From: Mytilus edulis
Taxonomy: Eukaryota
Assembly (NCBI RefSeq): GCF_963676685.1
Contig: NC_092347.1
Coordinates: 89,404,001-89,468,000, forward strand
Length of the DNA: 64,000 nucleotides
Direction of reading: 5' to 3'
The position numbers and the translations under genes are program-made. Below are positions 1-3,030 of the stretch, in pieces; the first letter of the stretch is position 1; every line of letters begins with the position of its first letter. The notes beneath the pieces are model-generated. The model was not told where the DNA came from, did not search any database, and was given only the letters and a program-made list of their open reading frames with translations.

Positions 1-3000
1 GATTACTTGGTTAGTCCCCCATCCACATTGGTTTTGTGGTGGGTATAACCTACTTTGGGTGGTCCCTCATCCACATTGGTTTTATGGTGGACAAAACTTA
101 CTTGGTTGGTCTTCCTTCAACATTGTTTTTGAGGTGGATAAAACGCACTTGGTTGGTCGCTCGTCCACATTGGTTTTATGATGGATATAACTTACTTGAT
201 TGGTCCAAATCCACATTGGTTTTGTAGGGGATATAGCTTACTTGGTTGGTCCCCCATCCACATTGGTTTTGTGGTCGATATAACTTACTTGGTTGGTTCC
301 TATCCACATTGGTTTTGTGGTGGATATAACTTACTTGGTTGGTCCCCAATCCACATTGGTTTTGTGGAAGATATATAACCAACTTTGGGTGGTCCCTCAT
401 CCACATTGGTTTTATGGTTGACATAACTTACTTGGTTTGTCTTCCTTCCACATTGTTTTTGTGGTGGAAAAAACGTACTTGATTGGTTCCCAATCCACAT
501 TGGTTTTGTGGTGGATATAACTTACTTGGTTGGTCCCCAATCCACACTGGTTTTGTGGTGGATATAACTTACTTGGTTGGTCCCTAATCCATATTGGTTT
601 TGTGTTGTATATAACTTCTTGGTTGGTCCCCCATCCATATTGGTTTTATGGTGGATATAACTTACTTGGTTGGTCCAAAATCCACATTGGTTTTATGGTG
701 GATAATACATACTAGGTTGGTTCCCAATCCACATTGGTTTTATGTTGGATAAAACGTACTTGGTTGGTCGTTCGTCCACATTGGTTTTATGGTGGATATA
801 ACTTTCTTGGTTGGTCCCCTGTATAAATTGGTTCTGTAGTGGATATAAATTACTTGGTTGGTCCCCCATCATTCATATTATTTTTGTGGTGGATATCACT
901 TACTAGGTTTATTCCCCATCTGCATTGGTTTTGTAGGGATATAGCTTATTTGGTTAGTCCCCCATCCACATTGGTTTTGTGGTGGATATTACCTACTTTG
1001 GGTGGTCCCACATACACATTGGTTGTATGGTGGACATAACTTACTTGGTTGGTCTTCCTTCCACATTGTTTTTGTGGTGGATAAAACGTTCTTGGTTGGT
1101 CGCCCATCCACATTGGTTTTATGGTGGATATAACTTACTTGGTTGGTCCCCAATCCACATTAGTTTTGTGGTGGATATAGTTTACTTGGTTGGTCCCCAA
1201 TCTTCATTGGTTTTGTGGTGGATATAATATACTTGGTTGGTCCCCAACCTACATTGGTTTTGTGTTGGATATAACTTACTTGGTTGGTCCCCAATCCACA
1301 TTTGTTTTGTGGTGGATATAACTTACTTAGTTGGTCCCAAATCCACATTGGTTTAATGGTTGATATAACTTGCTTGGTTGGTCCCCCATCCATATTGGTT
1401 TTATGGTGGATGAAAATTACTTGGTTGGTCCCCAATCCACATTGGTTTTATGGTGGATATAACTTACTTGGTTGGTCCCCCATCTACATTAGTTGTGGTG
1501 GATATAACTTACCTGGTTGGTCCCCCATCCACATTGGTTGTATGGTGGATATTACTTACTTGGTTGGTCCCCCATCCACATTGGTTGTATGGTGGATATT
1601 ACTTACTTGGTTGGTCCCCCATCCACATTGGTTTGATGGTGGATATAACTTAGTTGGTTGGTCACCCATCCATATTGTTTTTAAGGTGGATATAACTTAC
1701 TAGGTTTATTCATCATCCGCATTGGTTTTGTAGGGGATATAGCTTACTTGGTTGGTCCCCCATCCACATTGGTTTTGTGGTGGATATAACCTACTTTGGG
1801 TGGTCCCTCATTCACATTGGTTTTATGGTGGACATAACATACTTGATTGGTCTTCCTTTCACATTGTTTTTGTGGTGGATAAAACGTAATTGGTTGGTCG
1901 CCCGTCCACATTGGTTTTATGGTGAATATAACTTACTTGGTTGGTCCCCATTCCACATTGGTTTTGAGGTGGATATAACTAACTTGATTGGTCCCCAATC
2001 CACATTGGTTTTGTGGTAGATATAACTTACTTGGTTTGTACCCCATTTACACTGGTTTTGTGGTGGATATAACTTACTTGGTTGGTCCCCAATCCACATT
2101 GGTTTTGTGTTGGATATAACTTACTTGGTTGGTCCCCCATCCACATTGGTTTTATGGTGGAAATAACTTACTTGGTTGGTCCCCATCCACATTGGTTTTG
2201 TGGTGGATATAACTTAGTTGGTTGTGCCCCCATCCACATTTGTTTTATGATGAATATACATAATATAACTTATTTGGTTGGTCCCCATCCACATTGGTTT
2301 TATGGTGGATATAACTTACTTGGTTGGTCCCCAATCCACATTGGTTTTGTGTTGGATATAACTTACTTGGTTGGTCCCCTATCCACACAGTGTGTATGGT
2401 GGATATAACTTACTTGATTGGTCCCTCATCCACATTGGTTTTATTGTGGATATAACTTACTTGGTTGGTCCCCCATCAACATTGGTTTTGTGGTGGATAT
2501 AACTTACTTGGTTGACAACCCCCCTTCCCCACATCCACATTGGTTTTTTTGTTGAATATAACTTACTTGGTTGGTCCCCTATCCACACAGTGTGTATGGT
2601 GGATATAACTTACTTGATTTGTCCCCCATTCACACAGTTTGTATGGTGGATATAACTTACTTGGTTGGTCCCCCATTCACACAGTTTGTATGGTGGATAT
2701 AACTTACTTGGTTGGTCCCCCATTCACACAGTTTGTATGGTGGATATAACTTACTTGATTGGTCCCTGATCCACAGTTTGTATGGTGAATATAACTAACT
2801 TGATTGGTCCCCCATCCACATAGATTGTATGGTGCAAATAACTTACTTGATTGGTTCCCCATCAAGACAGTTTGTATGGTGGATAAAACTTACTTGATTG
2901 GTCCCCCATCCACACAGATTGTATGGTGGAAATAACTTACTCTAGGTGCCCAATCCTCCTTGGATTTAAGCTTGATATAACTTACTTGGTTGGTCCCCCG

Positions 3001-3030
3001 TCCACACTGGTTTTGTGGTGGATATCATTC
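1..3030 (-). repeat. ~47-bp minisatellite (~64 copies, runs off the left edge) made of the DTC exon 3' end plus 5' splice site
   Basis: Minus-strand unit ATATCCACCACAAAACCAATGTGGATGGGGGACCAACCAA|GTAAGTT; the terminal copy is the real exon end ([12 protein letters not shown], donor at 2985-2984). Confidence 0.95.

Follow-up and report, generated by a model that had tools for sequence, protein, structure and literature searches.

A 47-bp minisatellite seeded by an exon–intron boundary in a DTX3L-like gene of Mytilus edulis is probably a neutral passenger removed whole by splicing

Minisatellites that reiterate a splice signal have been described in several animal genes. In the 37-bp VNTR of human F7 IVS7, the first monomer spans the exon–intron boundary, takes in 4 exonic nucleotides, and the donor is reiterated in identical form over 5–9 copies; the most upstream donor is normally the sole one used (Borensztajn et al. 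2006, PMC1557585). According to the same account, the pseudo-sites are functional if the upstream site is mutated and otherwise do not compete. The parts of that source dealing with other human genes list 25 pseudo-sites in intron 2 of 6-16, 15–20 units in IVS13 of CBS, 10–15 in LMNB2 and 16–18 in intron 4 of PDGF, and describe two pseudo-sites of 6-16 and CBS as being used besides the true site, a precedent against reading such arrays as passengers (PMC1557585). In amphioxus, the 'mirage' minisatellites of Adh3 and of globin genes are duplications of exon boundaries on the donor or acceptor side, with splicing reportedly undisturbed; cluster edges are excluded from homogenisation, and somatic instability was shown for Adh3 (PMC3087553). 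Among the literature matches listed, there was no paper on the present locus or on donor arrays in Mytilus.

The stretch analysed here (64,000 nt of M. edulis contig NC_092347.1, hereafter the window) carries an intact, expressed RRM-Macro-RING-DTC gene of DTX3L-like composition, whose domains were found by Pfam in successive exons. PF00097 and PF18102 extend across three exons as a RING followed by a complete DTC, the arrangement of Deltex ligases. The closest proteins were those of Mytilus galloprovincialis, M. edulis and M. trossulus (96–99%), followed by M. coruscus and M. californianus (93%). The coding exons are as follows.

9093–9253, minus strand: first coding exon, PARP14-type RRM (Pfam, protein match; boundaries approximate)
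8396–8470, minus strand: short second coding exon (match to Mytilus proteins; boundaries approximate)
5236–6672, minus strand: exon with the Macro domain (Pfam, protein match; boundaries approximate)
3855–4810, minus strand: exon with the RING finger and the start of the DTC (Pfam)
2986–3203, minus strand: penultimate coding exon, Pfam DTC positions 41–110, contains HHKT (Pfam; junction 3855/3203 in 6 RNA reads)
G000:C4:89403067-89403136 (L018:1067-1136), minus strand: last coding exon, 864–933 bp before the window, 22 residues FGYPD...KGII plus stop, intact

The last exon is present at the end of all six full-length Mytilus protein models aligned. Being intact and spliced, it rules out a broken or truncated gene. 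A match to PDB 3PG6 (E = 2e-39) was obtained with the M. galloprovincialis fragment P0020. By the spacing in this alignment, the first His of HHKT is equivalent to DTX3L H707, in agreement with the earlier note, which had placed HHKT in the ADP-ribose-binding DTC; the equivalents of Y719 and E733 lie in the last exon. In DTX3L, H707 and E733 are described as catalytic (PMC10810221), and Y719A as defective in ssDNA ubiquitination (PMC11460948). Read-through of the first donor of the last intron gives AAG TAA and the final 22 residues are lost, so the proposal that passing this donor truncates the DTC was correct; all extra copies of GTAAGT lie behind that stop. Since the Y719 and E733 equivalents are in the last exon, the truncated product is predicted to be inactive in ADP-ribose ubiquitylation.

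The last intron measures 3,849 nt, of which 3,361 nt (87%) are a tandem array on the minus strand. Its 47-bp unit consists of the final 40 nt of this DTC exon followed by GTAAGTT. TRF reported a period of 47 with 63.9 copies at 3–3025 (score 3515) within the window, and 72.3 copies with the neighbouring DNA added. Unit-by-unit alignment gave an exon unit at 3025–2979, then 71 complete units within the intron and, last, a single decayed one. Full units reach approximately 375 bp before the window start, and the array ends about 375–430 bp before position 1; the array reported previously is real, but its length is 3.4 kb instead of 3 kb. The main features are listed below.

1–2978, minus strand: intronic 47-bp copies, units 1–63 in the window, continuing beyond it (TRF and alignment)
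2979–3025, minus strand: founder unit, 40 exon nt plus GTAAGTT, beginning at ATATC (alignment)
2980–2985, minus strand: authentic 5' splice site CAA/GTAAGT, GT at 2985 (sequence and RNA junction)
2984–2982, minus strand: in-frame TAA on read-through (sequence)
2934–2978, minus strand: unit 1, 45 bp, 74% to consensus, donor AGA/GTAAGT (alignment)
1506–1552, minus strand: unit 31, the sole copy with full-consensus CAG/GTAAGT, GT at 1512 (alignment; no use seen)

The motif ATATC stands at 3025–3021 and again at 2978–2974, at both ends of the founder unit and 47 bp apart. The unit consensus agrees with its own exon end in 44/47 positions and with nine paralogous exon ends in 21–33/47 (two further paralogues unscored). 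Being far closer to its own exon end than to those of the paralogues, the unit has its source in this exon. The match and the 47-bp spacing support the suggested origin from the exon end with an ATATC microhomology. Mean unit identity is 89% to the consensus and 86% to the exon unit. GTAAGT occurs 42 times in the intron including the true donor (41 extra; 37 inside the window), which substantiates the claim of many near-duplicates of the true splice site, and CAA/GTAAGT is kept in 35/72 intronic units. The locus displays the features of the exon-boundary class, namely tandem units of 10–100 bp (47 bp, 72.3 copies), a first monomer that spans the boundary and a reiterated splice signal.

A non-exhaustive genome search with three units returned a single candidate locus, this one, and in that search the unit did not recur elsewhere as in a dispersed or transposon-borne satellite. 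A metagenome scan with the unit junction yielded 0 loci. An assembly artefact was ruled out, as the units are individually different and a contig of run X17 spans 2888–3357 (5 other letters, 2 gaps). A polypyrimidine-AG acceptor was looked for inside the array and none was found, which speaks against cassette exons there. In run X17, units 0–2 and many array contigs were seen; these contigs carry no allele lengths. Another X17 contig, at window position 2973, joins exon-unit-like sequence to the far array end. This is probably the last unit placed by likeness, a short array allele being possible.

The exon and the unit consensus differ in three columns, two of them synonymous and one encoding Ser in the exon and Asn in the consensus. 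At column 19 the exon has G where 62/72 units have A, and at column 26 it has C where 61/72 have T. The HHKTNVD of the consensus is found unchanged in the proteins of M. coruscus and M. californianus, while those of the edulis complex have Ser; Asn is also found in Branchiostoma and fish homologues. Outgroup bivalve orthologues that could polarise Asn/Ser were not found among 4 hits. The identity with the M. coruscus and M. californianus proteins could be taken to favour the proposal that the array is a gene-conversion donor, diversifying or homogenising the exon end, as could an exon allele seen in X21 and X22, with A at unit column 26, a letter also present in 6/71 units. However, exon and array keep different letters: the exon retains G at column 19 and C at column 26 against the array majority, and 0/71 units carry all three exon letters. 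The column-26 allele corresponds to the Asp>Glu residue of M. trossulus (window position 3000), without a linked array letter, and an exon variant of X23 (column 29 C) occurs in 0/72 units. On the suggested comparison of exon-end variants with array variants, the exon alleles in the RNA runs showed no linked array letters, and we regard conversion as extremely improbable. Because Asn is present in Branchiostoma and fish homologues as well, the match is more simply accounted for by seeding that preceded an Asn>Ser change. On the simplest reading of these letters, the array would have been seeded before that change, with no homogenisation since.

Donor usage was read from RNA. Raw reads were from one study, and their alleles differ from the window, so units 1–2 might map poorly. 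Window positions 2887–4100 were covered by 26 reads in X21 and 30 in X22, with no X24 reads on the gene. The upstream intron was spliced in 2 (X21) and 4 (X22) reads, and depth on units 1–2 was zero in both runs against 5–15 on the exon. The acceptor side was represented by the last exon with bait units 71–72, junctions being read from loose ends and the bait unit; counts refer to displayed reads, with 1 and 2 loose-end rows undisplayed and the 3 acceptor-side reads of X22 unclassified. In X23, 11/11 displayed reads continue beyond the acceptor as exon-type sequence in which the three exon-diagnostic letters are all present (agreement 0.99). X15 and X4 each contain one contig with the exact exon end joined to the last exon. 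As the three letters occur together in 0/71 units, these junction reads do not come from array donors. In the RNA, position 2986 is linked to the last exon; splicing was seen only from the donor at 2985, and none of the joints listed leads from the donor of bait unit 71 to the acceptor. The junction mapping that had been called for therefore shows use of the 2985 donor only, at low depth. Dominance of the most upstream donor, typical of exon-boundary arrays, is seen in all 11 displayed reads and the 2 contigs, at this low depth; 0/11 alternative use corresponds to an upper bound of 24%.

In X22 approximately 4 sense-strand reads, and in X4 several contigs (depth 3–6), lie on the bait unit and extend into further units. 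If they derive from all 72 units, array reads would amount to about 1–2% of exon depth per unit, the level of unspliced precursor; intron retention is a possible source. Decay could mask alternative products, and minor leakage is possible at this RNA depth. The array might, for instance, be leaky and unselected, with a few percent of transcripts using donor 2 or 3 and ending in a stop-truncated DTC without the Y719/E733 equivalents. Such leakage would be compatible with neutral drift of the DNA and with an RNA bound of only <24%; units 1–3 keep GTAAGT, and the human 6-16 and CBS arrays provide precedents in the two pseudo-sites described as used (PMC1557585). Nevertheless, we consider it unlikely, since units 1–2 had zero depth in two runs, all 11 displayed junction reads were exon-type, and donor 2 (AGA/GT) fits the consensus less well than donor 1 (CAA/GT). 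Donor 2, the unit 1 donor with its GT at 2940, is 41 nt past the in-frame stop, and donor 3 is 88 nt past it. Junction-dependent decay follows a 50–55 nt rule in mammals. If this rule holds in molluscs, donor-2 products might escape such decay, and later ones (at least 88 nt) would not.

Selection among units was assessed on a tree of 71 units; 47-bp units give rough trees, and the test senses strong selection only. Parsimony placed 29 changes in the six GTAAGT columns, where base-matched columns predict 26.3 (P<=0.71, P>=0.34), and the donor window ranks 30 of 47 six-letter windows by change count; the donor letters mutate like their neighbours. Codon positions behave alike (p = 0.53), which speaks against coding constraint on the units. 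Changes from GC to AT outnumber those from AT to GC (174 vs 103). Intact GTAAGT, counted by thirds from the proximal end, was found in 18/24, 10/24 and 13/23 units (Spearman p = 0.06), a weak sign against neutrality. Derived letters common to units 24/41/54/61, 25/42/55/62 and 27/44/64 indicate block duplications, and units 2–9 together with 13 form one subfamily. The unit next to the exon had been called the most diverged; this holds within the window (unit 1, 2978–2934, 74%), but the far-edge unit ties with it at 74%. Equal decay at both array edges marks that of unit 1 as an edge effect. Silencing of unit 1 by selection was ruled out, as decay at the far edge is just as strong and GTAAGT persists in unit 1.

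The frequency of such arrays was estimated from paralogues and control exons. Among 12 loci with this DTC exon, 3 have a donor-spanning array and 9 showed none. The two others with an array are neighbours on C12 (L020:1710-1868 and L022:1706-1850, coding orientation; near 47.06 and 47.04 Mb), each with a decayed 49-bp array of about 3 copies across this donor; its phase differs from that of the studied array and its unit is mostly intronic. The C12 arrays share one origin (z 16 between them); common origin with the studied array was ruled out (z 1.8 and 0.4). The control comprised 88 kinase and P450 exons (60 hand-picked from hit lists and 28 of 60 fetched loci), with whole-domain hits and near-identical tandem copies excluded; the P450 exons are related. 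With splice sites assigned by inspection, tandem duplications that cross a splice site or begin at one were present in 5/88 control exons (5.7%, 95% interval 1.9–12.8%), with at least 3 copies in only 2/88. All five are given in coding orientation.

L124:769-838: 35 bp x2, donor side
L154:810-1271: 28 bp x about 16, from the donor GT
L088:1289-1521: 27 bp x8.6, acceptor AG and the beginning of the exon forming the unit, a mirror case in a P450 gene
L143:406-634: 98 bp x2.4, acceptor side
L146:505-678: 87 bp x2, acceptor side

Donor arrays had 2 origins in 11 DTC lineages compared with 2/79 control donors (Fisher's test, p = 0.07); counted by loci, 3/12 DTC gave p = 0.015, although two of these loci are not independent. 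That arrays arose twice at this DTC donor counts against a passenger. Separately, kinase-domain frames were found head to tail with near-identical scores at L052-L056 (G000:C3, 19.69–19.81 Mb; spacing about 1.77 kb) and at L057-L066 (G000:C1, 44.21–44.23 Mb; about 1.87 kb).

These counts bear on a selected role, in which array length would tune an immune-type ligase as a decoy or U1 sink, or the array would shield the intron from premature polyadenylation. The 41 extra GTAAGT, the 7 AATAAA in the intron, the unrelated array that two paralogues carry at this donor and the somewhat higher share of intact donors close to the exon (p = 0.06) could all be accommodated by such a regulator. Yet the donor columns lack excess conservation, no alternative product was seen in the low-depth RNA, arrays of this kind are also found in kinase and P450 genes, unrelated to this one, elsewhere in the genome, and 9/12 DTC paralogues have none; a regulator is very improbable. 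In particular, the decoy-donor or U1-sink function suggested earlier runs against splicing from the 2985 donor only, the absence of RNA on units 1–2 and the base-matched rate of change in the donor columns. Neither mark of a splicing-regulatory repeat, use of alternative donors or selection on the donor motif, was seen, at low RNA power. A related idea is that, in this expanded mussel gene family, the DTC donor is a recurrent array seed (two independent origins in 12 paralogues), with length tuning the share of a stop-truncated, catalytically dead RING-Macro isoform through donor 2 or retention in unsampled tissues or challenges; this too has little probability, if marginally more.

The evidence is best explained by a locus-specific minisatellite that arose from the exon–intron boundary of an intact DTX3L-like gene and is likely a neutral passenger, removed whole with its intron. 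The first step was likely a single 47-bp duplication by slippage at the ATATC microhomology, and the array would then likely have grown by unequal exchange or crossover. By analogy with human F7, we propose that the copies are silent through first-donor priority, which would also account for removal of the whole array with the intron. Rare leaks would be tolerated because a stop follows the first donor.

Read as a passenger, the locus is an extreme natural case of a known class, with 41 near-identical donors, one of them better than the true site, apparently ignored over 3.4 kb. The first-donor rule, drawn from mammalian minigenes, would thereby be extended to a mollusc, with the array as a possible test substrate. 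An older exon state seems to be preserved in the array (Asn, cf. M. coruscus and M. californianus), and arrays of this kind may thus help to date changes in exons. For annotation, the dozens of HHKT-like frames at the locus are not exons. Wider importance would follow only if length were shown to tune expression.

Other features were noted in the window, in which TRF found more than 20 tandem arrays. Intron 2 of the same gene holds a young 43-bp array of 16 copies (7252–7948, 99% matches). Each unit carries TTTTTAG and CAG/GTAA 24 nt apart, forming a stop-free pseudo-microexon that appears in none of the six Mytilus protein models; the neighbouring exon end is not copied. Small arrays lie at 8622–8862 (29 bp), 9523–9625 (34 bp) and 9846–10009 (17 bp), in or upstream of the gene. 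An open frame at 36953–37267 (minus strand) with a KRRKRKSS stretch may resemble LIM-domain-binding (Ldb/Chip) proteins, and another at 49029–49415 (plus strand) has a possible signal peptide.

Compared with known systems, the host protein shares with DTX3L and the Deltex ligases a RING and a DTC with the H707, Y719 (Phe in mussel) and E733 positions, the catalytic His and Glu being assigned by alignment. To these the mussel protein adds a Macro domain and a PARP14-type RRM. The array itself resembles that of F7 in its boundary-spanning first monomer, intronic donor copies and use of the first donor; it differs in its 72 copies, 40 coding nucleotides, 89% mean identity to the consensus, position in a last intron and occurrence in a mollusc. 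The 6-16, CBS, LMNB2 and PDGF arrays have the same architecture, and the mussel array has about 3 times the copies of the longest human case listed there (72 vs at most ~26, PMC1557585). In contrast to 6-16 and CBS, no pseudo-site use was seen in mussel RNA, at low depth. Like the mirages, it is an invertebrate boundary array with decayed edge units (1 and 72), in another phylum and in other genes, the globin arrays having only 3–6 copies (PMC3087553). The mussel array is likely a large but ordinary case of the known exon-boundary repeat type.
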